The position numbers and the translations under genes were made by a program. Source: Candidatus Caldatribacteriota bacterium (GTDB lineage Bacteria; Atribacterota; Phoenicimicrobiia; Phoenicimicrobiales; Phoenicimicrobiaceae). Taken from it: a stretch of 48,107 bases of DNA. The stretch covers positions 1-48,107 of the forward strand of contig JAYEGH010000091.1 in NCBI GenBank assembly GCA_034659055.1, in the 5' to 3' direction. Numbering within the stretch: the stretch's first letter is position 1; the number at the start of each line of letters is the position of its first letter. The notes beneath the pieces were generated by a model. The model was not told where the DNA came from. It was given only the letters and a program-made list of their open reading frames with translations, and ran no database searches. Below are positions 185 through 21,237 of this stretch, piece by piece.

Positions 185-1516
185 TTAAAATCTCTTCCAA
201 AAATCCTTTGCCTGTTCTTTTACTTTTGATGTGATTTTCTCATAATTCAAACCTTTAATTTCCCGATTCTCCATCAGCATCTTCCCCCCTGCTATAGTTG
301 TATCAACCATATCTCCGCTTATCCCAAACAAAATATGGATATAAGCATTCTCACTCGTGATAGGAGTAGGTGGAAAATAATTTACTGTAATAATATCGGC
401 TGCGGCACCGTTTTTGATAGTCCCGAATTTATCTCCAAAAAAATTATGGGCAATATTTCGGTTTCCTTGAAAGGCTATCCGGAATATTTCTTCCCAACCG
501 GCTTGAGGATTATGCAAGTCATGTTTTTGTAGAAGATTAGCTACTTTAATGGATTCAAACATATCGGCAGTATAACCATCAGTACCCAATCCTACTATTA
601 TTCCCTTATCTAAAGCAGTTTTAACCGGAGTAGCTCCTACCGCGTTTCCCATATTGGATTCAGGATTATGAATTAAATAACTACCGCTATTTTTTACAAT
701 TTCCAATTCTTCTTCTTTGAGATGGACTCCGTGAATAGCCATGGTTCCCAGTCGCAGTATGCGGAATCGTTTAAGGCGCTCTGCCACTCCTGTATAACCC
801 CGGGTTTTACTCTCATATACATCCGCTTTTCCTTCTGCAACATGAATATGAAAAGGGACTTCCAACTCATCAGCTAAATCGGATGCCTGGGAAAGTGTGT
901 CATTTTTGAGGGTAAAGGAGGCATGAAGACCGATCATTCCCTTTAAAAAACTATTATTTTCTTTCTTTGTTTTTCTTATAAACCGCTCATTCTCCCTGAT
1001 TCCTTTCAAGGCTTTTTCATGCCCATCGCGATCTGTTATTTCATAAGCCAAACTTGCTCTTACTCCTGATTGCTTCACTGCTTCAGCAATAATATCCAAA
1101 CTTCCTTCAATTAGATTACTGCTGGCATGATGATCAAAAATGGTGGTAACTCCCTTTTTTACACAATCCATCAGCGGATAGATGGCACTATAATAAATAT
1201 CATCTTCGTTCAATCCTTTATCCAGTCTCCACCAGAGTTTTTCTAAAATTTCTACAAAATTTTGAGGCGGACTATCAGTCTTTATATCCATTCCCCGGGC
1301 AAAAGTGCTATAGAAATGCATATGGGTATTGATCATTCCCGGCATAATGATTTTTCCCTGAACATTCTTATAATCGGCATTAGGATATTTTATCCGCAAT
1401 TCCTTTGTGTCCCCGACAGCCACAATTTCCCTTCCCTCAATTACTACCCCTCCCCCGGAGATAACTCGGGAATTTTCATCAAAAGTAATAACTGTTCCAT
1501 TTCCGATAAGTAACAT
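185..1516 (-). CDS. ssnA: SsnA-like aminohydrolase (amidohydrolase superfamily)
   Basis: 443 aa with RBS aaaaGGAGGaaaaaATG. Contains the metal motif PGMINTHMHFYST plus LWWRLD and FDHHASS blocks, which parallel E. coli SsnA as I recall it. Lies beside XDH-family genes, as ssnA does in E. coli. Confidence 0.8.
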   Translation of the reverse strand: MLLIGNGTVITFDENSRVISGGGVVIEGREIVAVGDTKELRIKYPNADYKNVQGKIIMPGMINTHMHFYSTFARGMDIKTDSPPQNFVEILEKLWWRLDKGLNEDDIYYSAIYPLMDCVKKGVTTIFDHHASSNLIEGSLDIIAEAVKQSGVRASLAYEITDRDGHEKALKGIRENERFIRKTKKENNSFLKGMIGLHASFTLKNDTLSQASDLADELEVPFHIHVAEGKADVYESKTRGYTGVAERLKRFRILRLGTMAIHGVHLKEEELEIVKNSGSYLIHNPESNMGNAVGATPVKTALDKGIIVGLGTDGYTADMFESIKVANLLQKHDLHNPQAGWEEIFRIAFQGNRNIAHNFFGDKFGTIKNGAAADIITVNYFPPTPITSENAYIHILFGISGDMVDTTIAGGKMLMENREIKGLNYEKITSKVKEQAKDFWKRF

Positions 1517-1608
1517 TTTTTCCTCCTTTTCCTGAAAACCATCATTTCATCTTGATAGATTTCTGCAAGTTCTGAGGCGTATAGCAGTACGCCCCTACTT
1601 CTTTTTTC

Positions 1609-1643
1609 CAAACTTGAAACTTGTAACTAGTAACCTGCAACTT
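1609..1643. repeat. Five tandem heptanucleotide repeats (CAAACTT GAAACTT GTAACTA GTAACCT GCAACTT)
   Basis: Read directly from the sequence. Strict 7-nt periodicity, consensus G(T/A)AACTT. Located 93-127 nt upstream of the ssnA start, in the 211-bp gap. Confidence 0.6.
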
Positions 1644-1662
1644 ATATCTTTAATTGGGCAAT

Positions 1663-1686
1663 TGGTAAATAGGTAAATTGGTTAAT
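1663..1686. repeat. Three tandem octamers (TGGTAAAT AGGTAAAT TGGTTAAT)
   Basis: Read directly from the sequence. Lies next to the heptad array in the same intergenic gap. Confidence 0.5.
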
Positions 1687-1727
1687 TTAATAACTATGCT
1701 ATATACTAAATTAAGATTGATAATATT

Positions 1728-3095
1728 TTATCCGTCAATCATTTTTTGCGAAATTTTATTAGCTTTTTCCACAACTTTATCTTCATCAATAGTCACTAGT
1801 TTTCCATCACGAACAACTATTCTACCATTCACTATAGTCATATCCACTATTTGCGAATCTCCGGAATTCACCAATGCAGAAACTGCATCCGATAAACCGC
1901 CGGCAAATCCCAATCTCTTAGTATTAATCAAAAACATATCGGCAGCTTTTCCTTCTTCAATGCTCCCTATTTCAGGTTGATTCAAAATATCCCGACCTCC
2001 GTTGGTTGCCATAGCCAAAACTTCTTCGGCCGACATAGCGGAAATACCTGAAATAAGCCTATGCATTAAAAAAGCAGCTCTCATCTCAGCAATCATGTTG
2101 GAAGAATCATTACTTGCACTGCCATCAACACCCAATCCCACCCTTACTTTCTTTTTTAACATATACGGTATGTTTGCTGGACCGGAAGCAAGTTTCTGGT
2201 TGGATACCGGGCAATGTGCCACACCCGTATTTGTTCTCGCCATTCGTTCAATTTCACTTTCGTTTAACCATACGCAATGGGCAAACCATACATCTTTACC
2301 CAGCCAGCCAACTTTTTCCATATACTTTAATGGTCGCAAGCCAAAAGTTTTCTGACAAAATTTATTTTCATCATTGGTTTCAGCCAGATGGGTATGACTC
2401 TCCACTTTATAATTTCGAGCCAATTTAATAGATTCTTTCATCAGCATTTCAGTAACTGAAAATGGTGAACAGGGTGACAGGACGACTCTTTGCATGGCAT
2501 AAGGTTTGTCATCATGATATTTTTCAATTACCCTTTGGGAATCGGTCAGTATCTCTTCTTCTGTCTGAACTACTGAATCCGGCGGTAAACCTCCGTCCTT
2601 TTCACTCAAAGACATAGAACCCCGGCTGCCGTGAAACCTCATCCCTATCTCTCCTGCTGCTTCAAATTCTTGGTCAATTATATTTTTACTTCGACCCCTG
2701 GGAAAGACGTAGAATTGATCAGAAGAAGTCGTACAACCTGTCTTTAAGAGCTCACCCATAGCAACTTGAGCGCTGTAATAAACAGCTTCCGGGGTTAAGT
2801 GAGCCCAAATAGGATAAAGAAATTTTAACCAGTCAAATAACTCGATATCTTGTACCTGGGGAATATTTCGAGTTAAGGTTTGATAAAAATGATGATGGGT
2901 ATTGATCAATCCGGGGAAAAGAAAGTAACTTGAACCATCGATAATTTCTTCTGCTTCATCTTCTATATTCGTCAGATCCGTAGTTATTTTATCGATAATG
3001 TTGTTTTTAATTAGAAGATTATATTTTTTTAATCTATTCCTCTCGTTATCCATGGTGACAATCTCTTTGATATTTTTAATTAGGATAGAAGACAT
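1728..3095 (-). CDS. Amidohydrolase, 8-oxoguanine/guanine deaminase-like (cytosine deaminase/chlorohydrolase group)
   Basis: 455 aa. Blocks PGLINTHHHFYQTLTR, HTHLAET and GLGVDGSASND are typical of this deaminase group. RBS GAGAGGAG lies upstream of the ATG. Confidence 0.75.
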   Translation of the reverse strand: MSSILIKNIKEIVTMDNERNRLKKYNLLIKNNIIDKITTDLTNIEDEAEEIIDGSSYFLFPGLINTHHHFYQTLTRNIPQVQDIELFDWLKFLYPIWAHLTPEAVYYSAQVAMGELLKTGCTTSSDQFYVFPRGRSKNIIDQEFEAAGEIGMRFHGSRGSMSLSEKDGGLPPDSVVQTEEEILTDSQRVIEKYHDDKPYAMQRVVLSPCSPFSVTEMLMKESIKLARNYKVESHTHLAETNDENKFCQKTFGLRPLKYMEKVGWLGKDVWFAHCVWLNESEIERMARTNTGVAHCPVSNQKLASGPANIPYMLKKKVRVGLGVDGSASNDSSNMIAEMRAAFLMHRLISGISAMSAEEVLAMATNGGRDILNQPEIGSIEEGKAADMFLINTKRLGFAGGLSDAVSALVNSGDSQIVDMTIVNGRIVVRDGKLVTIDEDKVVEKANKISQKMIDG

Positions 3096-3119: not shown

Positions 3120-3581
3120 CTATTTAGCTACACTTTCGATTGCTTCGATAATTTGCTCATAACCGGTACAGCGACAAAGATTACCTTCCAAAGCAGTCTT
3201 AATCTCCTCTCGCGTAGGATGGGGATTATGCATAAGTAGCGCTTTGGCAGACATCAACATTCCGGGTGTGCAAAACCCGCATTGAACAGCATTGCAATCA
3301 ATAAAAGCTTGTTGCAAAGGATCCGGCTTTCCCTTAATTTCCAATCCTTCTACAGTTAATACTTCACTACCCTCCAGCTGTCCGGTAAGAATAAGACAGG
3401 AATGAACCGCTTCACCGTTCAAGATAACTGTACATGCCCCGCATTCGCCTATTCCACAGCCTTCTTTTGTTCCCGTTAGTTTTAACTGATTTCTTAGAGT
3501 ATCGATCAAGCGTTCCTTTGGTCCTACCTCCAAAAACACCTGTTTTCTATTTACTTTAAAAGTAACCTTTGTTTTATTCAT
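3120..3581 (-). CDS. Xanthine dehydrogenase family, [2Fe-2S]-binding small subunit
   Basis: 153 aa. Two Fe-S cysteine clusters: CGIGECGACTV and CGFCTPGM...CRCTGY. Overlaps the FAD subunit stop by 8 nt. Confidence 0.9.
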   Translation of the reverse strand: MNKTKVTFKVNRKQVFLEVGPKERLIDTLRNQLKLTGTKEGCGIGECGACTVILNGEAVHSCLILTGQLEGSEVLTVEGLEIKGKPDPLQQAFIDCNAVQCGFCTPGMLMSAKALLMHNPHPTREEIKTALEGNLCRCTGYEQIIEAIESVAK

Positions 3582-4452
3582 TTTTGCTTTTCTCCTTGAT
3601 CACTTCTTTTAGAGCGCGTTGAACTAATGTTGAAATGACCGGCTTCTTATAAGGAGTCGACCACCTTATTCCTGTAACAGAAACAACTTCTTCACTCATT
3701 ATCCTGCCTATCTCTTCTATATTGATTTTATGAATAGATTGACCGTTGACAGCTCTTTCAACTCCGGGGAGAGATTGGGGATAGGGAGTGGCTGAACCGG
3801 GAACTATTCTTGCATCCCGAAAAATATTTTCCTCATCAATCTTTACTACCACAGCCAAATTTAACCTGGAAATTGACAGGGCTTTTCTTCTTCCTATTTT
3901 TTGAAAATCGGTATAATATCCATCACCAGGTAAGGGAATTCTTATTTTGGTTAATAATTCATTTATTTGAATTTTAGTTTTATAAGGACCTGCTAAAAAT
4001 TCTTCCAAGGATAATACTCTTTTGCCTTTCCTATATGTTAATTCTACTTCAGCCCTTAAGGCTATTAAAGGAGGTAACAGGTCCGCGGCTGGTGAGGCAT
4101 TACAAATATTGCCACCAATTGTTCCTCTGTTTCGTATTTGCGTTGAACCGATATAGTGTGCAGCACAACTCAGCAAGGGTAACTTTTCCTTAACCAACGG
4201 TTCATGCATTAACCCTGAATGAGTTACCAGGGGACCAATCTCCACATAATGGTCAACCTGCCGGATAAAATTTAAAGTACCGATATTGCTGATATCCAAC
4301 AAATAAGATATTTCCGGTAATCGCTTACTCTTATTGTGAATGTTCACCAGAATATCGGTTCCTCCGGCTATTACTTTTACCTGATTCAATTTATACAAGT
4401 AATTGAGTGCTTCTTCTAATCCGGAAGCTGATAAAAAATCGTAATCAATCAT
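3574..4452 (-). CDS. Xanthine dehydrogenase family, FAD-binding medium subunit (CoxM/XdhB-like)
   Basis: 292 aa. Blocks IAGGTDILV and RGTIGGNICNASPAADL. ATGA overlap with the large-subunit stop. Confidence 0.85.
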   Translation of the reverse strand: MIDYDFLSASGLEEALNYLYKLNQVKVIAGGTDILVNIHNKSKRLPEISYLLDISNIGTLNFIRQVDHYVEIGPLVTHSGLMHEPLVKEKLPLLSCAAHYIGSTQIRNRGTIGGNICNASPAADLLPPLIALRAEVELTYRKGKRVLSLEEFLAGPYKTKIQINELLTKIRIPLPGDGYYTDFQKIGRRKALSISRLNLAVVVKIDEENIFRDARIVPGSATPYPQSLPGVERAVNGQSIHKINIEEIGRIMSEEVVSVTGIRWSTPYKKPVISTLVQRALKEVIKEKSKNE

Positions 4453-6755
4453 TTTTTTCTTCCCCCTTTACTTAAAGAATATCCCAATAAAACTCTTTCT
4501 AAATTAAGGGGTAAATGTCTAATTCTTTTTCCTGTTGCCTGAGCTACCGCATTTGCAATGGCTGCCGCCCCTATTTCAAGGGTGGGTTCACCAATGGATT
4601 TTGCACCAAAAGGTCCGTTTGGATCCGGATTTTCTACGATAATGGGATTGATTTCCGGCATATCTTTAATTGTAGGAATCAAATATTCGTCAAAATTAGC
4701 ATTTTTAATATAGCCTTTATCTGTTTCCAATTCCTCCATTAAACCATAACCCATCCCCATCATGACTCCTCCGTAAATCTGTCCCTTAAGGCAAGCAGGG
4801 TTAATGGCTCTGCCTACATCATGGGCTGCTGTCATCTTTAACAGATCTACCTTTCCGGTCCCTGTATCTACTTCCACTTCAGCGATTTGGCAGCCATAGA
4901 CATAGGTAAAATACGGTCTTCCCTGTCCGGTTTCTTCATTCCAAGAGATATCAGGGGCCTTATACCACCCGAAAGCGGAAAGGCATAATCCCTCCTGGTA
5001 AGCCAATGATACGGTTTCTTCAAAAGAGAGTAATTTTTTTTCTGTTTTTCTGTCAATAAGATAATCATCTTGAATTATAATATAATCTTTTCTCATCTTG
5101 TATTTCTTTGCCATCATCTCAAGGAGCATACTTTTTAATTTGACCACAGCCTCTTTAATCGCATTACCGCCTAAGATAGTGCCGCGGGAAGCTACTGTAG
5201 AACCGCTGTCAGGCGATATCGAGGTATCCAGTTCCTGATAAATTACCCTTTTCATATCCACACCCAACTCCTCGGCAGCAATTTGCGATAAAACGGTTTT
5301 TAAGCCCTGACCATTTTCTGCTAATCCGGAGCTGATTAATATGCTTCCATCCTTTTGAATAGCCACGATGGCTCCGGCTGCATCGACCGCTTCTGCACCC
5401 AAACTACAACCGCGAAAACTGATCGCCATACCGATTCCTCTTTTTATATCTCCGGGTTTTGATTTATTATTTTTATATAATTCGTATTTTTTATAATAAC
5501 CACTTTCTTTTGCCGCTTTTTCTATAACCTCTTCCAGGCTCACCTCGTGATTATCCAGTTTCTGGCCACTTGCCGTGATTGAATTATTATGATAAATATT
5601 TTTTAAACGAATCTCAGCAGGGTTCATATTTAATTCCCCAGCTAATTCATCCATTAAAGATTCCTGGGCAAAGATGGTCTGGGGAGTACCGTAACCCCTC
5701 ATTGCCCCTGTATATACATTATTGGTGTAATAACCGTAGGTATCTGTTTTTACATTAGATAAACTATATGGACCTGTAGCCTGGACGACCGAACGCCAGG
5801 TAACAAAAGGTGTCTGACAGGCATAAGCTCCACTATCGGCGATACACTGAATTTCCATACCTAATAATTTACCCTCCCTTGAAGCTCCAATCTTATATTT
5901 CATCTTATAAGGATGACGCTTATAGCTTTCCAAAATGGATTCATAGCGTGAATTAACCATTTTTATCGGCCTCTTGGTTTTTAAGGCCAAAACAGAAGCC
6001 CGAGCGGCCATGGCAGACATTACCTCATCCTTGCCACCAAATGAACCACCAATATGATTCTGAATAATTCTTACTTTGTTTAAACTTACCATTAGTACAC
6101 TTGCAACTGCGTTTTGACAGGAAAAAGGATTTTGTATCGAACCATAAATAGTAATCAAATGATTGTCATCATAAGGTACTGCTACGATAGCTTCAGGTTC
6201 AATATAGCTGTGCTCTATAAATTGAGTGGAATATTCTCTTTCCAGGATAATATCTGATTTGGTAAATCCATCATTCACATTACCTTTTCTTAATAAATGA
6301 TGAATGACTTGATTATCTTTTAATTCAGGATGAACTCGAAGCGCTTTTTCTTTCGAGGCCTCTTCCGGGTCATAAATTCCGGGCAGTTCTTTATAGTCAA
6401 CTTCAATCAGCTCCAATGCTCTTTCTGCAGCCTCTTCTGTCTCTGCAGCTACCACAGCAATTCCATCCCCGATATAATATACATATTCCTTAGCCAATAC
6501 TTGTTGATTTTGAATAATTACTCCAAATTCATTATTGGGAATATCAGTAGCAGTTAAAAGAGCTTTAACCTCCGGAAAAGTTAAAGCTCTTTTTATTTCT
6601 ATTTTATTAATTTTTGCATGAGGGTATCTACTGCGCAAAACTTTTGCATAAAGCATATCGGGGAAAGATAAATCAGCTGCAAATTTGGCTTTACCGGTTA
6701 CCTTTTCATAAGCATCCACCCGATTAACTGATTTATTTACTTGATGATATTTCAT
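4449..6755 (-). CDS. Xanthine dehydrogenase family, molybdopterin-binding large subunit
   Basis: Blocks GGSFGGK, AMRGYGTPQ and the C-terminal SIGEPT (catalytic Glu context). The ORF runs to 6773, but the ATG at 6755 has RBS AGGGAG 9 nt upstream and the 6773 ATG has none. Confidence 0.9.
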   Translation of the reverse strand: MKYHQVNKSVNRVDAYEKVTGKAKFAADLSFPDMLYAKVLRSRYPHAKINKIEIKRALTFPEVKALLTATDIPNNEFGVIIQNQQVLAKEYVYYIGDGIAVVAAETEEAAERALELIEVDYKELPGIYDPEEASKEKALRVHPELKDNQVIHHLLRKGNVNDGFTKSDIILEREYSTQFIEHSYIEPEAIVAVPYDDNHLITIYGSIQNPFSCQNAVASVLMVSLNKVRIIQNHIGGSFGGKDEVMSAMAARASVLALKTKRPIKMVNSRYESILESYKRHPYKMKYKIGASREGKLLGMEIQCIADSGAYACQTPFVTWRSVVQATGPYSLSNVKTDTYGYYTNNVYTGAMRGYGTPQTIFAQESLMDELAGELNMNPAEIRLKNIYHNNSITASGQKLDNHEVSLEEVIEKAAKESGYYKKYELYKNNKSKPGDIKRGIGMAISFRGCSLGAEAVDAAGAIVAIQKDGSILISSGLAENGQGLKTVLSQIAAEELGVDMKRVIYQELDTSISPDSGSTVASRGTILGGNAIKEAVVKLKSMLLEMMAKKYKMRKDYIIIQDDYLIDRKTEKKLLSFEETVSLAYQEGLCLSAFGWYKAPDISWNEETGQGRPYFTYVYGCQIAEVEVDTGTGKVDLLKMTAAHDVGRAINPACLKGQIYGGVMMGMGYGLMEELETDKGYIKNANFDEYLIPTIKDMPEINPIIVENPDPNGPFGAKSIGEPTLEIGAAAIANAVAQATGKRIRHLPLNLERVLLGYSLSKGGRKK

Positions 6756-6833
6756 TTTCTTTGTCTCCCTCATTATTATAAATCATTTTAGAATGTAAGG
6801 AAAAACTTTTTTTCTTAATATAGATATTTTAAC

Positions 6834-12989: not shown

Positions 12990-13028
12990 GGAATCTATCT
13001 TATCCTTTTTAATTCTTCTAACTTCGTT

Positions 13029-13046
13029 GGGCACGATGCGTCGTGC
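13029..13046. repeat. Small GC hairpin GCACGA-TGCG-TCGTGC, preceded by GG
   Basis: Perfect 6-bp stem with a tetraloop. The 11-mer GGGCACGATGC (13029-13039) recurs inverted at 34891-34901. Confidence 0.55.
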
Positions 13047-13075
13047 TCATACAAGGCATTACTATATTTTATTTT

Positions 13076-14492: not shown

Positions 14493-15536
14493 TTATCTCA
14501 TCAGAAGAGTCATTATTGCCTTTTGAGCATGCAGTCTGTTCTCAGCTTCATCAAAGACCACCGAATTCGGACCATCAATTACCGAATCGGTTACTTCATA
14601 CCCTCTATCACAAGGCAGGCAATGCATATAAATTGCTTCCGGTTTAGCTAATTTTAATTTTCGGTCATCACATATCCAATCCTTATTTTTATCAAATAGG
14701 GCTTTCATCTTCTCTACATTTATTTCAGAAGTTTGCGGCGGAACACAGGTTAAGCTACCCCATGATTTAGGATATAACACATCTGCATCTTTAAAAGAAT
14801 CTTCCATAGAATCGGTTTCTTCAAATGAGCCACCGTATTTTTTAGAATTTTCTTTGATGGCATCAATCATCATGGGATCCAGTTGGAAACCCTCCGGACG
14901 GGCTAAAGTAATATTCATACCAAACTTACTGGCTGTTGACATTAAACACTGTGGAACTGCCACTGGTTTTTCCACACTTGGTGAATAAGCCCAGCTTACT
15001 ACCAATTTTTTATTACGTAAGTCACCCAATTTTTCTTTCATGGTGAGGACATCAGCCATCGACTGACAAGGGTGATATATATCGTCTTCCATATTAATTA
15101 CTGGGATATCTGCCCATTTAGCAAATTCGCGCAGATATTTATTACCATTACCATATTTCCAACCGGTCGGTTTTCCATACATTCTTATAGCAATACCATC
15201 GCCCATTCTAGCCAATACGCGAGCAACATCAGATACTCTTTCTGTAGAGTAGGCTCTCTCTTCACCTTCAGTAGCAGGAGTATATATCTTTTCTGAATCC
15301 AGATAATTGGCATGTCCGCCTAACTGAGTCATTCCAGTTTCAAAGCTGTTACGGGTTCGTAAAGATTTATTGTAAAAGATAATAAATAAAGTTTTACGGA
15401 GAAGCAGTGAGTGCTCCCGACCAGATGCATTGTCAGCCTTTAAAACAGCAGCTAACTCCAGCATACTTTCTAATTCGTCCTTGGTAAATTCCAGTGTACT
15501 TATAAAGTCACGACCTTTTAATGATTTTGTTTTCAT
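14493..15536 (-). CDS. YgeW-like non-canonical carbamoyltransferase (CT2)
   Basis: 347 aa. Has SLRTR, HPCQ and HCLP motifs. The blocks SWAYSPSVEKPVAVPQ and GGSFEETDSMEDSFKDADVLYPKSW mirror E. coli YgeW (WAYSPSYGKPLSVPQ; GGSF..TSMEEAFKDADIVYPKSW, from memory). RBS AGGAGGAATCAAA-ATG. Confidence 0.8.
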   Translation of the reverse strand: MKTKSLKGRDFISTLEFTKDELESMLELAAVLKADNASGREHSLLLRKTLFIIFYNKSLRTRNSFETGMTQLGGHANYLDSEKIYTPATEGEERAYSTERVSDVARVLARMGDGIAIRMYGKPTGWKYGNGNKYLREFAKWADIPVINMEDDIYHPCQSMADVLTMKEKLGDLRNKKLVVSWAYSPSVEKPVAVPQCLMSTASKFGMNITLARPEGFQLDPMMIDAIKENSKKYGGSFEETDSMEDSFKDADVLYPKSWGSLTCVPPQTSEINVEKMKALFDKNKDWICDDRKLKLAKPEAIYMHCLPCDRGYEVTDSVIDGPNSVVFDEAENRLHAQKAIMTLLMR

Positions 15537-15844: not shown

Positions 15845-16768
15845 TTAAGAACGCTCCTTGATATAAGGTTTGCCTAAAAAGGCCGGAACATTAAATTTCC
15901 TTCTAGCAATGGTTGCTACAATTGTCAGAATATAGGGAAGAGCAATTAAGAATTCATTCGGAATCAGCTTAAAATTAGAAGTCAGCAAAACAACGGACAA
16001 TCCTTCGGCAAATCCAAAAATCAGAGAACCAATTAATATTCCCAGCGGATCCCAATTACCTAAAAAACAGATTGCAAAAGCAATCCATCCTCTTCCTCCA
16101 ATAATATCATTAGTATAAAGTCCTAAAAATCCTATAGAGTAGAAGGCTCCTGCTAAGCCATCCAATGCACTCGACCCAAGCACGGCAAGGAAGCGAATGC
16201 GTTCCACATTAATCCCGGCTACATCCACTGCTTCTGGATTTTCACCTGTAGAACGAATAATTAATCCTAAAGGTGTTTTAAATAAAATCCAATATCCTAC
16301 AGCAATCAGTACGACTGCCAGATAAGTCAAACTATTCTGACTAAAGAGAGCTCTTCCAATAATAGGAATATCAGATAAAAAAGGAATTGAAATATCCTTT
16401 AAAGGTTCTACGGTTAATGGTAAAAGAGGAATTCCAAATAACATTTGATAAAGAAACAATCCTAAACCCAAGGTAAGGATATTTATCGCTACTCCAGTTA
16501 CAATTTGATGTTGTTTTAATTTAATTGTGAAATAACCATAGATTGCACCACAAAAGATCCCTACCAGTATGGCAAATAAAAAACCAACCCATAGTTTTCC
16601 GGTCAAATAAGCTCCAACAAAACCTCCCCATGCACCCATAAGAAAGATTCCTTCAATAGCTATATTCATCACGCCAGTCCGCTCAGCAAATACTTCCCCT
16701 AATGCACCAAGCATCAAAGGTGTACTCATACGAATGGTAGCAACAAATAATCCAGTAATAATATTCAT
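15845..16768 (-). CDS. ABC transporter permease (BMP/nucleoside-type system)
   Basis: 307 aa, polytopic and hydrophobic. Overlaps the upstream permease gene by 4 nt, in an operon with a BMP-family binding protein. Confidence 0.85.
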   Translation of the reverse strand: MNIITGLFVATIRMSTPLMLGALGEVFAERTGVMNIAIEGIFLMGAWGGFVGAYLTGKLWVGFLFAILVGIFCGAIYGYFTIKLKQHQIVTGVAINILTLGLGLFLYQMLFGIPLLPLTVEPLKDISIPFLSDIPIIGRALFSQNSLTYLAVVLIAVGYWILFKTPLGLIIRSTGENPEAVDVAGINVERIRFLAVLGSSALDGLAGAFYSIGFLGLYTNDIIGGRGWIAFAICFLGNWDPLGILIGSLIFGFAEGLSVVLLTSNFKLIPNEFLIALPYILTIVATIARRKFNVPAFLGKPYIKERS

Positions 16769-17889
16769 AATCTATGTTCCTCTTGCTCCACAAGTTTTTT
16801 CTTGCTTCTTAAAACTATTAATTTATCTCTTATAAAATAAGATAAAATCACTGACAATATAACAAAACCCTCCATAATACCAATAATGCTAGCGGGAATT
16901 CTTGAGGTTTGAACAACTAGATTTCCGCCTACTTTTAAGGCTCCAAACAAAAGGGCAGAAATTACTATACCTAAAGGATGTGCATTTCCCAATATGGCAA
17001 TTCCTATTCCTTCAGCCCCAATCATGGGGTTAAATCCTTCAATTAACATGTGCTGCATTCCATTTATTTCTGTAAAACCTGCAATTCCGGCAAATGCCCC
17101 ACTTATAAAAAACACAATAATATAGATTTTTTCGACATTTACCCCTGCATAACGGGCTGCATCTCGATTAAATCCAACCATTCTAATTTTATATCCCAGC
17201 GATGTCTTCCATAAAATTAAATAAGCTACCAAAGCAACAAGCAAAGCAAATATAAAACCCCAATGAAGTCTCGTGTGCGGAATAAGGGATGGTAACCACC
17301 CGCTTTCCGGGATAACATCTGTCTGCGGATATTCCCCTTTGGCTTCTTTTAATAAACCTCCAAGTAGAAAATTCATCACAGCAATGGCAACATAAGTTAA
17401 CATCATGCTAACTAAAAATTCACTGGCATTAAAACGTGCTTTTACATAACCAATAAAAGCTGCCCATATACTGCCTCCCAGCAAACTCATTGTAAAACAT
17501 ATGAATAGTGCAAGCACCATGGGAAACGAACCTAATTTTAATGCAAATCCAACCGCTAATACCGCACCAATATAAAACTGCCCCTGAGCGCCAATATTGA
17601 ATAATGATGCTCGAAAAGCAAACCCAAAAGCCAATCCGGTAAGAATAAGGGGAGTCGCCTTGGCAAATATATCTGCAATATTGTATATATCGCGAAATGC
17701 GTAATTTAACATATTTGAATAAACAATTAATGGATTATGATCTAAAAGCATCATCATTATACTGCTCAACAACAGGCCAAGCAATACTGAAAATATAGGT
17801 AAAAGATTAAGTAGAATATTATTATCCTGCACTTTTACGGATAATTCGCTTTTTACAGTAATGTCTTTATTTCTATTATTTTTTTTCAT
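16765..17889 (-). CDS. ABC transporter permease (BMP/nucleoside-type system)
   Basis: 374 aa, polytopic. Overlaps the ATPase gene end by 14 nt. Confidence 0.85.
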   Translation of the reverse strand: MKKNNRNKDITVKSELSVKVQDNNILLNLLPIFSVLLGLLLSSIMMMLLDHNPLIVYSNMLNYAFRDIYNIADIFAKATPLILTGLAFGFAFRASLFNIGAQGQFYIGAVLAVGFALKLGSFPMVLALFICFTMSLLGGSIWAAFIGYVKARFNASEFLVSMMLTYVAIAVMNFLLGGLLKEAKGEYPQTDVIPESGWLPSLIPHTRLHWGFIFALLVALVAYLILWKTSLGYKIRMVGFNRDAARYAGVNVEKIYIIVFFISGAFAGIAGFTEINGMQHMLIEGFNPMIGAEGIGIAILGNAHPLGIVISALLFGALKVGGNLVVQTSRIPASIIGIMEGFVILSVILSYFIRDKLIVLRSKKKLVEQEEHRL

Positions 17890-19420
17890 TTCCCTGTCTC
17901 TCGGTAATTCCTGCCATTAAAAGTCCAATCTCATCGACATTTGCATCTTCTCTTAATATTATCTTGAGCAATTTTCCTCTATACATAACTCCTATCCGGT
18001 CTGATAAAATCATAATTTCCGATAATTCTGTTGAAATTAACAGAATGGCCTTACCTTCTTTTTTTTCTCTTAGTAAGGTTTTATGAACATAATCAATAGC
18101 ACCCAGGTCAAGACCGCGGGTAGGTTGTACAGCGACCAGTACTTTGGAACCGATATTTACTTCCCTTGCAACCGCAACTTTTTGCTGGTTCCCCCCTGAC
18201 AAAGTCATTGCCTTGCTAGTTGAGGAGGTTGCTTTGATTTCAAAATTTTTCATTAATGTTTTTGCATTTTGTTGAATTTTATTCTGATTCAAAAAGCCAT
18301 ATTTTATAAATGAGGAGTCAGAATGATTTTTAAGAAACAGATTTTCCTCAATGGACATATCCAAAACCAATCCCTCTTTATGGCGATCAGCCGGTATATA
18401 ACCTACACCCTGTTGAATAATGGATAAAGCATTTTTATTAGTGATTTCCTTGTCGGATAAAAGAAGATGACCACTCTTTGATTTCCGTAAGCCACATATT
18501 GTCTGGGCAAGTTCTTCCTGGCCATTACCGCTTACTCCGGCAATACCAAATATTTCTCCTTCCTTGACATCAAATGATAAGTCATCAACCATCTTGCTTT
18601 TTTTATCTCCAATAATGGTTAGATTTTTTATTTTAAGCACTTCTTTATTATTACTATTAAAAGTCGTAGCATTTCTTTTAGCTATCATCAAATCCCGCCC
18701 GATCATCATTTTCGTCAACTGACTCTCTGTTGCTTCATGGCGGGAAACATTCCCTACAACTTTACCGTCTCTTAATACGGTAATCCTATCGGCAATTTCC
18801 ATAACCTCATTTAACTTATGACTGATAAAGATAACCGAATGGCCTTTAGCTTTAAAATCATGTATGAAACGAAATAATTTCTCAGTCTCCTGAGAAGTAA
18901 GGACTGAAGTCGGCTCATCCATGATAAGAATTTCTGCATTTCGGTAAAGAGCCTTGATTATTTCCACCCGCTGTTGCATGCCAACCGGAAGTTGCCTGAT
19001 AAAGGCAAAAGGGTCAACCTCAAGTCCATACTTTTTGCCAATTTCTTCGATTTTTTTCACTCTTTTTCCAATATTTATATTATTCAAATAAGCAGATTCT
19101 GTTCCCAGAATAATGTTTTCTACTACTGTATGAACGGGAACCAGGGTAAAATGTTGATGAATCATACCTACACCGTACTTCATAGCATCATGAGGGGAGC
19201 GAATTCTCACCCGTTTTCCCTTGATGTATATTTCACCTTCATCCGGTTGATATAATCCGTAAAGTATACTCATTAAGGTTGTTTTACCAGCACCGTTTTC
19301 TCCAAAAAGAGCTAATACTTCTCCTCTTGCCAAAGTAAAATTAATGTGATCATTGGCAATTGTTCCCGGAAAATATTTAGTAATATTTTTTAAAGTAATA
19401 AAATCAGAATTATCTTTCAT
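17876..19420 (-). CDS. ABC transporter ATP-binding protein with duplicated ATPase domains
   Basis: Walker A GENGAGKTT, signatures LPVGMQQRV and LSGGNQQKV, Walker B ILIMDEPT. The ORF extends to 19489 but would then include the terminator hairpin. The ATG at 19420 (MKDNSDFITLKNITKYF) is the likely start. Confidence 0.9.
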   Translation of the reverse strand: MKDNSDFITLKNITKYFPGTIANDHINFTLARGEVLALFGENGAGKTTLMSILYGLYQPDEGEIYIKGKRVRIRSPHDAMKYGVGMIHQHFTLVPVHTVVENIILGTESAYLNNINIGKRVKKIEEIGKKYGLEVDPFAFIRQLPVGMQQRVEIIKALYRNAEILIMDEPTSVLTSQETEKLFRFIHDFKAKGHSVIFISHKLNEVMEIADRITVLRDGKVVGNVSRHEATESQLTKMMIGRDLMIAKRNATTFNSNNKEVLKIKNLTIIGDKKSKMVDDLSFDVKEGEIFGIAGVSGNGQEELAQTICGLRKSKSGHLLLSDKEITNKNALSIIQQGVGYIPADRHKEGLVLDMSIEENLFLKNHSDSSFIKYGFLNQNKIQQNAKTLMKNFEIKATSSTSKAMTLSGGNQQKVAVAREVNIGSKVLVAVQPTRGLDLGAIDYVHKTLLREKKEGKAILLISTELSEIMILSDRIGVMYRGKLLKIILREDANVDEIGLLMAGITERQGNEKK

Positions 19421-19433
19421 GTTTTCTTCTTCC

Positions 19434-19480
19434 AAAAAAAAGAGGGGGGATTGAAGAGTTTTTAAAAACCCTTCAATCCC
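19434..19480 (-). terminator. Hairpin plus U8 tract directly after the BMP binding-protein gene (attenuator/terminator)
   Basis: GGGATTGAAG (19447-19456) pairs with CTTCAATCCC (19471-19480). The loop holds the palindrome GTTTTTAAAAAC. In minus sense it is followed by CCCCTCTTTTTTTT. Confidence 0.6.
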
Positions 19481-19496
19481 TACTATCAATATTGTT

Positions 19497-20489
19497 TTAT
19501 TCCAAAGATTCGGGAAATTGAGATATAAATTTCAATAATTTCCCTTCTGCAATTAATTCTGAAGCTTGTTCAACCATTTCACGAACTTCCGGGGAAACCT
19601 CATCAGTAAAGGACATGCTAATAACCCCTTCTTTCATGCCTAATTCATTAACGACAGGTTTTAATTCACCGTTCATGTACTTTGTTGCAATCCATTTATA
19701 GATATCTTCTGTTCCAAACCATGCGCTTGCCACGACAGTACCCGGAGCAATATCATTCTGGTCACTTGCAAAACCTAAAAATTTAGCGCCTTGCTCTTTA
19801 CAGGATTGAATAGCACCAAGACCAACCTGGTTCGCATAGAAGAAAAGCACATCTGCGCCCTTGTCAATCATGGAAGAGGCCATTTGCTTGCCTAAAGCCA
19901 CATCGCTCCATGAATTTGCATAAGCCCTGATTACTTCAACATCTGGAGAGCCAATTCTTGCACCATATTCATAGGTATTTAGAAGTCTGATCATCAGTTT
20001 GTTGGGAAAGCCACCAGAAATACCGATTTTGCCTGTTTTGGTGGTATACCCAGCAATTATACCGGCTAAAAAGCTTGCTTCATATTCCTTGGGTAATACC
20101 GGGCAAACATTTGGAGGATTAGCAATCATTCCATTGAATACACAATAAGTAGTCTTCGGATATTTTGGCCCAACTCTATTGGCAGCTTCATCAAACTGCG
20201 TTCCCGCAGAAATAACTAAATCATATCCTCGTTCACCGTAATTTCGAAAAGTAGATTCATAATCACTTGCCTGGACATTTTCCACATATTCCATATTAGT
20301 TCCAAGTGTATTATTACACGCCAATAAGCCGGCATAGTTAGCTGCGTTCCAGCTTTGGTCATTAATAGGACCAGGGAGAATTAATACCATTTTATAACTT
20401 CCCGCATCTTTTGCGATTCCGGAAGTTATACATAAACTTAATACCAATAAAACTAATAATACTTTAATCAGTAAATTCGAATTTTTCAT
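19497..20489 (-). CDS. BMP-family (PnrA/Med-like) substrate-binding protein of ABC importer
   Basis: 330 aa with an N-terminal signal peptide (LVLLVLSLCITSG). Layout is typical of basic-membrane-protein purine-nucleoside binders. First gene of the ABC operon. Confidence 0.85.
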   Translation of the reverse strand: MKNSNLLIKVLLVLLVLSLCITSGIAKDAGSYKMVLILPGPINDQSWNAANYAGLLACNNTLGTNMEYVENVQASDYESTFRNYGERGYDLVISAGTQFDEAANRVGPKYPKTTYCVFNGMIANPPNVCPVLPKEYEASFLAGIIAGYTTKTGKIGISGGFPNKLMIRLLNTYEYGARIGSPDVEVIRAYANSWSDVALGKQMASSMIDKGADVLFFYANQVGLGAIQSCKEQGAKFLGFASDQNDIAPGTVVASAWFGTEDIYKWIATKYMNGELKPVVNELGMKEGVISMSFTDEVSPEVREMVEQASELIAEGKLLKFISQFPESLE

Positions 20490-20563
20490 TTTAGTTTTTA
20501 TACCTCTCTTTTATTTTTTATTTTTTATAAAGAAAACTTACTTTAAAAGCAAAAACTATTTTA

Positions 20564-20572
20564 CACCTCCTT
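20564..20572 (-). promoter_or_regulatory. Start-codon-less perfect Shine-Dalgarno motif AAGGAGGTG in the BMP-gene leader
   Basis: Full complement of the 16S 3' end, lying 75 nt upstream of the ATG at 20489. No ATG or GTG follows within 15 nt. The genuine RBS (AGAGAGG) sits next to the ATG. Confidence 0.35.
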
Positions 20573-20660
20573 CTTTTTTAATTATTCGCCAGTGAGTTAC
20601 CTAGTTATCTTGATTCTTATGTTATTTTGGATTTTTATAACTTCCTTACACCTCTACTTA

Positions 20661-20682
20661 CAAAACTACTATTAAATAGTAG
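20661..20682 (-). terminator. Weak AT-rich hairpin CTACTATT-A-AATAGTAG plus TTTT after the regulator gene
   Basis: Palindrome at 20666-20682, 3 nt after the stop codon, followed in minus sense by TTTTG. Confidence 0.35.
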
Positions 20683-20685
20683 ATC

Positions 20686-21237
20686 TTAAAAATTAGCCGG
20701 GGTTATCGCGGAAATAATAATGAGATCATTATCCCCTATACTGGTTATTTTATGAGGAATACTAGCAATGTAATATATCGTATCTCCAGCTCTCAATTCA
20801 TGCTCGTTGTCACCGATCTGGATTTTCATTATGCCTTCAACCACCAGGGTACATTCTTCGCCCTTATGGGGAAGAGGTGTGCTGCAGGTGCTGGCTCCCG
20901 GCTCAATGCGTGTTCTAATCATTTCAATCTGTTTGCTTAAATCAGGAGAGAGTAATTCATAGGTTAAATGAGATTCGGGAAATTTTAAAACTCTTCGCTC
21001 ATCTTTTCTTACTATTGCGCTTTGTTTTTTATCATCTACCAAAAAATAGAATATTGGAACATCTAAAACCTTGGATATTTCTCTTAATGCCATAATGGAC
21101 GGTGAAGCGATACCTCGTTCTATCTGACTTAAATAACTGGATGTTTTTCCAATTTTTTCCGCCAGTCTAGCCATGTTCATATCCTTGGAAATACGCAATG
21201 TACGAATTTTATTGCCTAATCTTTCTTTTTCGACCAT
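20686..21237 (-). CDS. XRE-family HTH plus cupin-domain transcriptional regulator (PuuR-like architecture)
   Basis: 183 aa. N-terminal HTH (LGNKIRTLR...LAEKIGKTSSYLSQIERG) and a C-terminal cupin barrel (HKGEECTLVVEG...GDTIYY...PHKI). Confidence 0.85.
   Translation of the reverse strand: MVEKERLGNKIRTLRISKDMNMARLAEKIGKTSSYLSQIERGIASPSIMALREISKVLDVPIFYFLVDDKKQSAIVRKDERRVLKFPESHLTYELLSPDLSKQIEMIRTRIEPGASTCSTPLPHKGEECTLVVEGIMKIQIGDNEHELRAGDTIYYIASIPHKITSIGDNDLIIISAITPANF

Follow-up and report, generated by a model that had tools for sequence, protein, structure and literature searches.

The window, meaning the whole 48,107-bp stretch of DNA that was analysed, is one entire contig of a Candidatus Caldatribacteriota MAG, and its host is an uncultured, sediment-dwelling Atribacterota bacterium. 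In the ORF listing, 17 open reading frames, all on the minus strand, span positions 185 to 21237 exactly (Table 1); the order that the initial annotation gave for this co-directional series was confirmed, and profile-HMM checks recovered every family on its list, from the regulator through SsnA, with two labels qualified. Neighbouring genes overlap by 4-14 nt (in ThrCL/M20/PLP488, XdhL/M/S and ATPase/permease/permease), and five intergenic gaps within the island measure ~200-310 nt. Downstream of ssnA there are 184 nt of non-coding sequence and then the contig end. The HAD-IA phosphatase gene immediately upstream, beyond the island, is syntenic with the cluster in loci L006 (77%) and L007 (59%), and its product is possibly associated with the island as a putative nucleotidase.

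Table 1. Genes of the island and its upstream neighbour, with the scores that support each family assignment
Feature	Position	Strand	Evidence
SsnA (island's last gene)	185..1516	-	NF005540, 595 bits vs cut-off 444
8-oxoguanine-deaminase-family amidohydrolase (OxoGD)	1728..3095	-	NF006055, 614.7 bits vs 532, pass
Three-subunit molybdenum hydroxylase (XDH family)	3120..6773	-	all equivalog models below cut-off
Hydroxylase 2Fe-2S subunit S	3120..3581	-	
Hydroxylase FAD subunit M	3574..4452	-	
Hydroxylase L subunit	4449..6773	-	
PLP488, 488-aa fold-type-II PLP enzyme	6834..8300	-	Pfam PALP, just 46.5 bits
M20 metallohydrolase, ArgE/DapE type	8297..9439	-	TIGR01910, 275 bits vs 218, pass
ThrC-like PLP enzyme (ThrCL), N-terminal 4-Cys zinc ribbon	9436..10689	-	NF006050, 315 bits vs 303, pass
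Carbamate kinase (YqeA/ArcC role)	10901..11851	-	NF009007, 462 bits vs 266, pass
CT2, second carbamoyltransferase, distinct family	11855..12865	-	OTCase fold; every NCBIfam model below cut-off
Allantoinase/L-hydantoinase-type cyclic amidohydrolase (AllB-like)	13076..14455	-	TIGR03178, 393.7 bits vs 357.85, pass
CT1, short YgeW-related carbamoyltransferase	14493..15536	-	OTCase fold; YgeW models fail
ABC importer, double ATPase and two permeases	15845..19489	-	best NCBIfam matches below cut-off
ABC importer permeases, two	16765..17889 and 15845..16768	-	
ABC importer double ATPase	17876..19489	-	
Bmp/PnrA-family substrate-binding protein of ABC importer	19497..20489	-	Pfam PF02608, 195.8 bits
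XRE-HTH + cupin transcriptional regulator, PuuR-like	20686..21237	-	Pfam HTH_3 51.8 bits, Cupin_2 48.2 bits
HAD-IA phosphatase (upstream, beyond the island)	21541..22125	-	TIGR01509, pass

SsnA, 33% identical to its E. coli namesake, also passes TIGR03314 (553 bits, cut-off 455.5); in the reductive urate pathway this amidohydrolase opens the ring. OxoGD, which presumably funnels guanine-type purines, adjoins ssnA in every case within the lineage; the pair is kept in Atribacterota and in loci L121-L147, and in L142 an OxoGD-like gene adjoins ssnA downstream of YgfK. All three hydroxylase subunits predicted earlier are present; the enzyme is assignable neither to xanthine dehydrogenase nor to 2,8-dioxopurine dehydrogenase, and it fits no equivalog (pucD, 572 bits against 784; XdhA, 561 against 780); its top PDB matches are 4-hydroxybenzoyl-CoA reductase (383 bits), nicotinate dehydrogenase (313) and bovine XDH (308). 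The equivalents of R880 and E1261 of bovine XDH are retained, and E802 is changed to D, F914 to Y, F1009 to L and A1078 to V; the insertion that bears E606 in E. coli XdhD is absent by comparison with that protein. The hydroxylase has 31-45% identity to XdhABC and 28-32% to XdhD/YgfM; that it is unlike both E. coli XdhD and the published DOPDH residue pattern counts against the pathway favoured below. It may convert xanthine to urate, urate to 2,8-dioxopurine, or both.

Among the lower-pathway families named in the initial annotation, profile searches upheld carbamate kinase, as they did SsnA, and failed to place any protein within YgeW, YgeY or HyuA. CT1, which PGAP labels ornithine carbamoyltransferase, scores 192 bits against 453 and 176 against 500 with the two YgeW models and narrowly fails the N-acetylornithine carbamoyltransferase model (283 bits, cut-off 288); it is 36% identical to E. 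coli YgeW, with which it has the motifs WAYSPS..KP.AVPQ, YPKSW and MHCLP.D in common. CT2 (motifs WGYSSMV-RSW, ARNWMSP and HPMPID) reaches 141 bits with the YgeW equivalog (cut-off 453), and in related loci its family is always found alongside another carbamoyltransferase. Motif comparison found the OTC motif DxxxSMG in neither protein, and both fall in the YgeW-containing clade, away from E. coli ArgI (196/200 bootstraps), so that the earlier description of a YgeW-like or YgeW-type enzyme stands at the level of the clade but not at that of the equivalog. The cyclic amidohydrolase (29% identical to E. coli HyuA) was rejected as HyuA on its failed membership test and is allantoinase/L-hydantoinase-like instead: it fails the D-hydantoinase model TIGR02033 (263 bits, cut-off 393), and its top PDB matches are allantoinase 3hm7 (290 bits) and L-hydantoinase 1gkr (243 bits). 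In the compact arrays of L007 and of the window it is the sole cyclic amidohydrolase; allantoin (5-ureidohydantoin) and 5-ureidomethylhydantoin are one CH2 apart. Carbamate kinase passes TIGR00746 too (380 bits, cut-off 358), and its identity to E. coli YqeA is 47%.

The second transcarbamylase and two additional fold-type-II PLP enzymes reported earlier are all present. ThrCL, the real start of which is probably Met9 (about 10665), resembles class II threonine synthases (Aquifex 2ZSJ, its top PDB match at 205 bits, and Thermus 1UIM) in its fold type, lysine motif SxKDR and CASTGN loop; unlike them, it has an extra N-terminal 4-Cys ribbon of ~70 aa, Met at the equivalent of T. thermophilus ThrC Arg160, with loss of this phosphate ligand, VGDGCIISG in place of the VGNAGN loop, and a context of purine catabolism rather than hom/thrB. 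We propose that ThrCL is an undescribed enzyme standing where YgeX, the known last enzyme, would be. PLP488 had been called TrpB-like, and the lysine motif TGAHK agrees with this, but its family profile lies nearest CysK/CBS (top PDB matches, ~105 bits). It fails the cysK model (~93 bits, cut-off 351), carries the conserved motifs GAHKVG, PSTGNYCRGG, TTGSAGT and EGIGDKH, and is often a partner of ThrCL, which it adjoins or lies near in 38 loci; by profile similarity it is distantly related to CysK/CBS. Between the two genes, overlapping each by 4 nt, lies that for the M20 hydrolase (top PDB match DapE 7uoi; 26% identical to E. coli YgeY), which was rejected as YgeY (196 bits against 321 and 155 against 321.5 with the YgeY models) and may possibly provide a bypass by hydrolytic ureido or acyl cleavage. 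PLP488 and the M20 hydrolase fit no explained step of the route favoured below, and this is counted against it.

At the head of the island, the XRE-cupin protein, presumably its ligand-sensing regulator, fails the PuuR model NF007408 (73 bits, cut-off 211); in L007 and L127-L158, orthologues of 54-69% identity sit next to the corresponding clusters. The top NCBIfam matches of the ABC importer are BMP-type 'putative B6' ABC models, each under cut-off. The Bmp protein is a different paralogue, as the Bmp genes found in related clusters match it at just 24-27% identity; other Atribacterota loci have equivalent transporters after ssnA, with a purine-nucleoside-phosphorylase-family gene.

The same gene set is syntenic in dozens of loci of other genomes, so the grouping is not due to chance. 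Comparison of gene neighbourhoods covered 160 related loci (truncated and phylogenetically non-independent, which weakens the co-occurrence statistics), in which the ThrCL gene is accompanied by genes for SsnA, XDH, carbamoyltransferase, carbamate kinase and M20. Across more than 10 phyla ThrCL lies in SsnA/YgfK/YgeY/carbamoyltransferase/kinase clusters, often with the 488-aa CysK-like gene, and its neighbours in other phyla include YgfK (TIGR03315 passed at 890 and 953 bits), YgeY (66-74% identical to that of E. coli) and YgeW (66%). YgeX occurs in one of the 160 loci (L165, which has neither ThrCL nor PLP488), and ThrCL and YgeX occur together in none. A close YgeY is present in 20 of 35 loci with one carbamoyltransferase as against 0 of 21 with two or more (Fisher p = 5.5e-6, uncorrected for phylogeny). 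L002 and L012 have AllB-CT-CT-CK-ABC-ThrCL and, within 10 kb of it, neither SsnA nor XDH; this counts against the pathway favoured below, since the module may then act on a ureide taken up by the cell.

The anaerobic urate pathway of gut bacteria (E. coli type) was solved biochemically in 2025 (PMC12507026; 10.1101/2025.04.24.650524), which makes outdated the earlier statement that the substrates of SsnA, YgeW, YgeY and HyuA are unassigned; the E. coli gene order given with it was correct. The E. coli reductive uricolytic, or 2,8-dioxopurine, genes are xdhD-ygfM, ygfK, ssnA, hyuA, ygeW, yqeA, ygeY and ygeX (PMC12507026), and the pathway is also found in Clostridium sporogenes/C. difficile (Li et al. 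2025, PMC12507026, preprint bioRxiv 10.1101/2025.05.19.654654; Liu et al. 2025, 10.1101/2025.04.24.650524). Ahead of the SsnA step it requires a reductase that dearomatises the ring, namely YgfK, UacX or an F420 enzyme (PMC12507026; 10.1101/2025.04.24.650524). As the initial annotation had it, neither YgfK nor YgeX was found across the 48-kb contig (tblastn), and the larger contig ORFs scanned gave no match to a UacX- or F420-type reductase family; in related Atribacterota loci, E. coli YgfK as a tblastn query had no match in the 10 kb around ssnA, and spot family searches in five such loci found no reductase downstream of it. With no such reductase on the contig or beside related ssnA genes, the uptake-to-ATP route suggested earlier is incomplete as encoded. 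Its formation of ATP from carbamoyl phosphate by the kinase is likely, and so is the removal of the C3 skeleton by PLP-dependent enzymes.

The suggestion of a purine/urate catabolic island, built round a true SsnA (595 bits against 444), is supported, and we think it probable that the island encodes the Atribacterota form of the reductive (2,8-dioxopurine) pathway by which urate and purines are fermented anaerobically, with double phosphorolysis and with enzymes other than the gut-bacterial ones at about five of the steps. What was observed directly is the gene content, the membership of families and the conservation of synteny; the route is inferred. The Bmp-type importer would bring in a purine base or nucleoside, from which OxoGD and the hydroxylase would make urate and/or 2,8-dioxopurine; after dearomatisation by a reductase that the contig does not encode, SsnA would open the six-membered ring to give 5-ureidomethylhydantoin, and the allantoinase-like amidohydrolase, in the role of HyuA, would open the hydantoin to 2,3-diureidopropionate. 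CT1, acting first on this compound, and CT2, in place of the hydrolase YgeY, would phosphorolyse one ureido group each, and carbamate kinase would convert carbamoyl phosphate to ATP. ThrCL, replacing YgeX and assisted by PLP488 and perhaps also by the M20 hydrolase, would turn 2,3-diaminopropionate or a mono-ureido derivative into pyruvate and ammonia, the whole set being under XRE-cupin control. Because the YgeW, YgeY and HyuA memberships fail, the lower pathway would consist of non-orthologous or paralogous enzymes, and all of its steps rest on analogy. If the route is true, two ATP per urate would be possible instead of one.

The main rival, which the initial annotation omitted and which we consider rather unlikely, is allantoin (ureide) fermentation: imported allantoin would be opened to allantoate by the allantoinase-like enzyme, the carbamoyltransferases would phosphorolyse its ureido groups, carbamate kinase would make ATP or supply carbamoyl phosphate, and XDH, OxoGD and SsnA would be a separate purine-funnelling module, adjacent incidentally. 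An allantoinase gene next to a carbamoyltransferase, then a purine-type ABC transporter, was read in this way in Atribacteria SAGs, with allantoin and allantoate detected in sediments and Atribacteria transcripts tracking allantoin (Bird et al. 2019, mBio, PMC6469976). That account predates knowledge of the reductive urate pathway; SsnA, XDH, ThrC-like and CysK-like genes are unmentioned in its 'allantoin degradation operon', and one operon there has a GntR regulator as against the island's XRE-cupin (PMC6469976). The TIGR03178 pass, the allantoinase PDB matches and the L002/L012 module also favour allantoin; yet the contig has no AllC, ureidoglycine aminohydrolase, ureidoglycolate dehydrogenase/lyase, AllFGH or glyoxylate-handling gene, and allantoate products offer no substrate to a beta/gamma-elimination PLP enzyme, although ThrCL is the most constant companion of carbamoyltransferase and carbamate kinase. 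Moreover, L007 and the window both have the amidohydrolase in one array with ssnA, as the only hydantoinase candidate, and elsewhere the ThrCL/PLP488 pair sits inside canonical YgfK/YgeY/YgeW clusters.

Far less probable is the xanthinase (Rabinowitz) pathway, in which XDH would reduce urate to xanthine, an amidohydrolase would hydrolyse this directly, a carbamoyltransferase would remove the ureido group of 4-ureido-5-imidazolecarboxylate and later steps would lead to glycine; xanthinase genes were reportedly identified by Tong et al. in 2023. It needs no dearomatising reductase, consistent with the absence of YgfK, and the island has several amidohydrolases, but SsnA passes its equivalog far over cut-off, there is no place for two carbamoyltransferases, an M20 and two beta-elimination-type PLP enzymes, and the decarboxylase and formiminotransferase are both absent. 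Least credible of all is that ordinary biosynthetic genes (ornithine carbamoyltransferases, threonine synthase, cysteine synthase, and acetylornithine or succinyl-diaminopimelate deacylase) lie beside a purine salvage unit by chance, as the PGAP/IMG names 'ornithine carbamoyltransferase', 'threonine synthase' and 'cysteine synthase' and the NF006050 pass of ThrCL would have it: the combination recurs beside SsnA, XDH, YgfK and YgeY across more than 10 phyla, DxxxSMG is missing from both carbamoyltransferases and the Arg160 equivalent from ThrCL, and PLP488 falls well below the cysK cut-off.

The island, which we favour as a variant of the reductive urate pathway, would couple OTCase-fold ureido phosphorolysis to carbamate kinase and ATP as the arginine and agmatine deiminase pathways do. 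Those pathways use a catabolic OTCase or putrescine carbamoyltransferase with carbamate kinase; the island, by contrast, has no deiminase, and the ornithine-binding DxxxSMG is missing from its carbamoyltransferases, which group with YgeW instead of ArgI. With the urate systems of E. coli and Clostridium it has in common a true SsnA, a carbamate kinase and a molybdenum hydroxylase with an FAD subunit, clustered with a cyclic amidohydrolase, an OTCase-fold carbamoyltransferase, an M20 and a fold-type-II PLP enzyme, and the overall plan of opening the ring, phosphorolysing ureido groups and forming ATP. Unlike them, it is without YgfK, UacX or F420 reductase, its hydroxylase has three subunits and is nearer XdhABC than XdhD/YgfM, and other enzymes stand in for the known ones: an allantoinase/L-hydantoinase type for HyuA, a short relative for YgeW, an ArgE/DapE-type M20 for YgeY, and ThrC-like and CysK-like PLP enzymes for YgeX; a second carbamoyltransferase is added. 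Transport and regulation differ from those of E. coli as had been anticipated, with a Bmp ABC importer for UacT/XanQ and an XRE-cupin protein for the sigma-54 activator YgeV.

The co-directional purine island proposed in the initial annotation is real: 17 consecutive ORFs occupy the minus strand between positions 185 and 21237 in the ORF listing of the window, and its general assignment to purine catabolism was right. SsnA scores above curated cut-offs, and the gene set is syntenic in related Atribacterota. Overlapping stop and start codons link ThrCL, M20 and PLP488, the three Xdh subunits, and the ATPase with the two permeases, and the five gaps, about 200-310 nt each, point to as many as six transcription units. 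A search for a shared operator across six intergenic regions gave zero common 11-mers and neither a meaningful alignment nor a repeat family; promoter and terminator scans yielded counts equal to shuffled expectation; and Rfam scans, at gathering thresholds for the whole contig and at E <= 1 for the island, found no riboswitch or RNA family, only chance matches to eukaryotic snoRNAs and miRNAs. Three spacers within the island (12866..13075, 10690..10900 and 1517..1727; 210-211 nt) each carry GC-rich hairpins in AT-rich surroundings, are mutually dissimilar and have no Rfam match; in L013, a related locus, the gap between OxoGD and ssnA is only about 17 nt. Beyond the 3' end of ssnA only 184 non-coding bases remain, the window being the whole contig, and the exact SsnA sequence was found elsewhere only on a 1.5-kb contig.

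Genes of the purine island, in transcription order, and other genes of the contig
Feature	Coordinates	Strand
XRE-HTH/cupin regulator	20686..21237	-
Bmp/PnrA binding protein	19497..20489	-
Double ABC ATPase	17876..19489	-
Permease	16765..17889	-
Permease	15845..16768	-
Carbamoyltransferase CT1	14493..15536	-
Cyclic amidohydrolase (AllB-like)	13076..14455	-
Carbamoyltransferase CT2	11855..12865	-
Carbamate kinase	10901..11851	-
ThrC-like PLP enzyme (ThrCL)	9436..10689	-
M20 hydrolase (M20)	8297..9439	-
488-aa PLP enzyme (PLP488)	6834..8300	-
Molybdenum hydroxylase subunit XdhL	4449..6773	-
Molybdenum hydroxylase subunit XdhM	3574..4452	-
Molybdenum hydroxylase subunit XdhS	3120..3581	-
8-oxoguanine-deaminase-family amidohydrolase (OxoGD)	1728..3095	-
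SsnA	185..1516	-
HAD-IA phosphatase	21541..22125	-
Unrelated: xanthine phosphoribosyltransferase	37015..37530	-
Unrelated: MacAB-type efflux pump, membrane-fusion protein, two OEP/TolC-family genes	37566..43102	-
Unrelated: sugar-type ABC system		
Unrelated: SbcCD		
Unrelated: ABC-F protein		
Unrelated: HI0933-like flavoprotein		
Unrelated: YgiQ		
Unrelated: MATE transporter		

The HAD-IA phosphatase gene, which immediately precedes that of the regulator, keeps its synteny with the cluster in other Atribacterota (L006, 77%; L007, 59%), and its product could be either a nucleotidase feeding the pathway or a member of the upstream sugar ABC operon (22132..25299). The xanthine phosphoribosyltransferase (NF006613, 227 bits versus 138) lies 16 kb from the island, giving the organism a salvage as well as a catabolic option for xanthine. 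In this Atribacterota genome of low GC content (about 36%), the efflux genes agree with a diderm envelope.

The initial annotation regarded the substrates of SsnA, YgeW, YgeY and HyuA as not firmly assigned; they have in fact been assigned by two 2025 studies that reconstituted the anaerobic urate pathway, in gut Enterobacteria and Clostridia only (PMC12507026; bioRxiv 10.1101/2025.04.24.650524). In that pathway XdhD, the 2,8-dioxopurine dehydrogenase (DOPDH), reduces urate to 2,8-dioxopurine; YgfK (DOPOR) reduces the ring further, a step given to UacX in C. difficile and to a putative F420 enzyme in Chloroflexota; SsnA opens the ring to 5-ureidomethylhydantoin; HyuA yields 2,3-diureidopropionate; YgeW with the kinase YqeA produces carbamoyl phosphate and ATP; YgeY hydrolyses the second ureido group; and YgeX turns 2,3-diaminopropionate into pyruvate. 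In the published survey of such clusters YgeX was counted as PF00291 and YgeW as PF00185, and by Pfam family alone YgeX is inseparable from ThrC-like and CysK-like enzymes.

Profile-HMM tests proposed in the initial annotation divided the island's proteins: SsnA and carbamate kinase pass their models, but the counterparts of YgeW, YgeY and HyuA fail theirs. SsnA (33% identical to E. coli SsnA over 100% coverage) passes NF005540 (595.3 bits versus 444) and TIGR03314 (553.1 versus 455.5) over residues 1-443, and carbamate kinase (47% identical to YqeA) passes NF009007 (462 bits versus 266) and TIGR00746 (380 versus 358). OxoGD is a putative 8-oxoguanine deaminase by its score against the equivalog NF006055 (614.7 bits versus 532).

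The molybdenum hydroxylase falls below the cut-off of every XDH equivalog model (best, pucD, 572 bits versus 784). XdhL is 31% and 28% identical to E. coli XdhA and XdhD, respectively, and its best solved relative is a reductive dehydroxylase, 4-hydroxybenzoyl-CoA reductase. Since it keeps the equivalents of bovine R880 and E1261, XdhL is predicted to be a competent purine-type hydroxylase, which would make urate, 2,8-dioxopurine or both. The DOPDH reference pattern comprises F1009V, A1078T/S and, in E. coli XdhD, E606; XdhL has D, Y, L and V at bovine E802, F914, F1009 and A1078, and lacks the insertion carrying E606. A second lineage of related loci (L121-L147; e.g. L127 3764..14926), with SsnA 51-60% identical, has the XdhLMS-OxoGD-SsnA block and, behind it, another XDH set of a different kind, whose large subunit is split; this additional set may be the 2,8-dioxopurine dehydrogenase wanting in Atribacterota clusters.

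Both carbamoyltransferases miss the YgeW cut-offs of NF005538 and TIGR03316 (CT1, 192 bits versus 453 and 176 versus 500; CT2, 141 versus 453 and 128 versus 500), as well as the OTC cut-off of TIGR00658 (242 and 211 bits versus 281), and the OTC motif DxxxSMG is absent, with PKSWGSL in CT1 and ARNWMSP in CT2. They are 36% and 34% identical, respectively, to E. coli YgeW; CT1 shares with it the signatures WAYSPS..KP.AVPQ, YPKSW and MHCLP.D but has neither its insertions nor its C-terminal tail, and CT2 is distinct from YgeW in signature motifs. The placement of CT1 with YgeW made in the initial annotation fails at the level of the equivalog and may hold at that of the clade: CT1, CT2, CT3 (a further family from related loci) and YgeW group to the exclusion of E. 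coli ArgI and PyrB in 196/200 bootstraps of a neighbour-joining tree built without AOTCase, SOTCase or PTCase references.

The cyclic amidohydrolase is a predicted allantoinase-type enzyme by TIGR03178 (393.7 bits versus 357.85); it fails the narrower NF004839 (390 versus 631) and NF005960 (293 versus 688), and the D-hydantoinase/HyuA-type TIGR02033 (263 versus 393). It is 29% identical to E. coli HyuA and groups with allantoinases and L-hydantoinase, not with D-hydantoinases. M20 (26% identical to E. coli YgeY) fails the YgeY models NF009555 and TIGR03526 (196 bits versus 321 and 155 versus 321.5) and passes the ArgE/DapE model TIGR01910, with DapE as its nearest solved relative.

At the terminal step, the initial annotation was correct that YgeX is absent: tblastn over the whole contig gives only local matches (27% of the query), and ThrCL fails the YgeX model NF006058 (62 bits versus 276). 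ThrCL narrowly passes the threonine synthase model NF006050 (315 bits versus 303), retains the PLP lysine and the CASTGN loop, and carries an N-terminal four-cysteine ribbon with C17, C20, C33 and C36 invariant. Against four solved ThrCs, NPHRLEGQKT is changed to NPYMVEGKKT and VGNAGN to VGDGCIISG, and Met stands at the equivalent of Arg160 of T. thermophilus ThrC, which reportedly binds the substrate phosphate (Omi and colleagues, 2003). With this Arg replaced and the VGNAGN loop altered, ThrCL is probably not a housekeeping threonine synthase. For both ThrCL (TTG, 10689) and XdhL (ATG, 6773) the automatic call probably sets the start too far upstream: ThrCL homologues of 409-411 aa all share its Met9, and the protein collection contains the exact sequences of the neighbouring proteins but of neither of these two.

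PLP488, a fold-type-II enzyme identical to database protein MEA1939662.1, belongs to a well-conserved family (62-93% identity across phyla) with the motifs GAHKVG, PSTGNYCRGG, TTGSAGT and EGIGDKH. Its Pfam PALP match is weak (46.5 bits), its best profile matches are to CysK/CBS (about 105 bits), and its AlphaFold2 model, built on a shallow 19-sequence alignment (78-93% identity), is too poor for use (mean pLDDT 50.9). An "L-series" lower pathway (L-hydantoinase, ArgE/DapE, ThrC/CysK) with PLP488 as a racemase was considered and dropped, because the presence of PLP488 does not cleanly track hydantoinase or M20 type; the window has both.

The neighbourhood comparison envisaged in the initial annotation shows that clusters of SsnA, carbamoyltransferase and kinase recur in many lineages. 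We assembled 160 related loci (L numbers), 80 from GTDB species genomes retrieved with an alignment of ThrC-like homologues and 80 from JGI metagenomes retrieved with the SsnA protein, and labelled all of them by tblastn with window and E. coli proteins. The Atribacterota locus L007 has the order HAD-XRE/cupin-AllB-CT-ThrCL-M20-PLP488-ATCase-like-XdhLMS-OxoGD-SsnA, and L013, L099, L113 and L118 resemble it, so the island is syntenic in other Atribacterota. Purine clusters with ThrCL, whose neighbours there include carbamoyltransferase, carbamate kinase, PLP488, M20/YgeY, XDH and SsnA, span Atribacterota, Caldisericota, Chloroflexota (Anaerolineae, Ktedonobacteria, Thermoflexales), Synergistota, SAR324, Haloplasma, Bacteroidota and further candidate phyla; several contain bona fide YgfK (TIGR03315, 890 and 953 bits versus 835) or a YgeY 66-74% identical to that of E. 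coli, and L045 has a YgeW 66% identical. ThrCL occurs in 110 loci, in 38 of them alongside PLP488. A homologue of E. coli YgeX was found in one of the 160 (L165), which has SsnA, YgfK, YgeY, carbamoyltransferase, carbamate kinase and HyuA, and neither ThrCL nor PLP488; YgeX and ThrCL are mutually exclusive across the 160 loci. Two Caldisericota loci (L004, Caldisericum exile AP012051.1 604..11257; L014) show a reduced arrangement, which has neither a carbamoyltransferase nor a kinase within 10 kb and consists of an SsnA-like amidohydrolase (43-44%), a second one of AllB type, a ThrC-like gene and a divergent ABC transporter of the Bmp type; an adenine deaminase sits between the two amidohydrolases of L004.

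Carbamoyltransferases of the related loci comprise a large CT1 family (including the window's CT1 and that of the otherwise canonical L165), CT2, CT3, an ATCase-like type passing TIGR00670 (261 bits versus 237), and YgeW proper. The presence of a second carbamoyltransferase goes together with loss of YgeY: close YgeY (>=50% identity) is present in 20 of the 35 loci with one carbamoyltransferase and in none of the 21 with two or more, a difference (Fisher p = 5.5e-6) that is only indicative because the loci are incomplete and phylogenetically related. The ATCase-like type (L007 13997..14932; also L009, L113, L023, L034, L044, L054, L063, L064, L068 and L071) is embedded in many of the purine clusters, in Atribacterota between PLP488 and XdhL, and having no PyrI partner it probably has a catabolic role.

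The uptake-to-ATP route of the initial annotation is incomplete on this contig, which lacks a known dearomatising reductase. As that annotation had stated, YgfK is absent, with zero tblastn matches to the E. coli query on the whole contig; the same query finds none in any related Atribacterota locus, and spot family searches downstream of ssnA in five of these loci reveal no reductase. Loci that do carry YgfK include those of Chloroflexota and Haloplasma. In related Atribacterota, ssnA is followed by an ABC transporter of the Bmp type, a further amidohydrolase and a phosphorylase of the PNP family, which supports purine nucleosides as input. The missing reductase is a concrete gap, implying a new dearomatisation enzyme or a different SsnA substrate. 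An Atribacterota metagenome contig (L120 7069..10366) carries SelA (selenocysteine synthase) and elongation factor SelB a few kb downstream of ssnA, of interest because the pathway's gut-bacterial hydroxylases are selenium-dependent. Ktedonobacteria clusters (L037 7623..8651 and 12812..13780) contain an FMN-dependent alpha-hydroxyacid-dehydrogenase-like gene (255 bits to LldD-type models), possibly an alternative reductase, as well as a metallo-beta-lactamase-fold gene; a Lactamase_B gene also lies between AllB and the carbamoyltransferases of L002 (1068..1874).

The island, we think, probably encodes a variant reductive fermentation of urate or purines with non-orthologous or paralogous replacements. 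The allantoinase-like amidohydrolase would act as the hydantoinase in place of HyuA, and CT1, a short relative of YgeW, would cleave the first ureido group; CT2 would take over from YgeY by cleaving the second phosphorolytically, with a potential yield of two ATP per urate; and ThrCL, with or without PLP488, would serve as terminal lyase in place of YgeX, or might instead beta-eliminate urea directly from albizziin. For CT2, ThrCL, PLP488 and M20 we infer these steps from co-occurrence. The main rival, a fermentation of allantoin, seems to us less probable. In Atribacteria single-cell genomes, allantoinase and carbamoyltransferase genes lie side by side with a purine-type ABC transporter after them, and they have been linked to allantoin in Baltic sediments where uric acid and guanosine also occur (Bird et al. 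2019, PMC6469976), and L002 and L012 have an AllB/carbamoyltransferase module with neither SsnA nor XDH nearby; however, the contig holds no other allantoin-pathway gene, and a beta/gamma-eliminating PLP enzyme would have no obvious substrate there. A route through xanthinase is unlikely, as is a purely biosynthetic role for the genes.

Extending the variant urate pathway beyond the window, we tentatively suggest, as a possibility on which we place less weight, that zinc-ribbon ThrCL, often paired with PLP488, forms a terminal module used widely in anaerobic urate fermentation, undescribed in the literature searched, that replaces YgeX in at least ten phyla; that versions with two carbamoyltransferases phosphorolyse both ureido groups and so double the ATP; and that Atribacterota, whose clusters lack the known reductases, may reduce or bypass 2,8-dioxopurine by an unknown route. 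The points of most interest, the YgeX-excluding ThrC-like/CysK-like module, the YgeY-excluding second carbamoyltransferase and the missing Atribacterota reductase, are unmentioned in the literature searched: a search for ssnA with threonine synthase returned one unrelated paper only, and the 2025 pathway papers contain no terms for them. If the replacements are right, the pathway is much more modular than has been described, with other enzymes able to serve as terminal lyase and as hydantoinase; a higher-yield version making two ATP per urate would be relevant to engineering urate-lowering probiotics; and the "allantoin" operon invoked to explain how Atribacterota survive over long periods in deep sediments may be one for purine/urate fermentation. 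The E. coli neighbourhood (ygeW-ygeX-ygeY-hyuA-yqeA, and ssnA-ygfM-xdhD with guaD) was given correctly in the initial annotation, and so was the contrast drawn with it: unlike E. coli, the island pairs its catabolic genes with a Bmp-type ABC importer and an XRE-cupin regulator.
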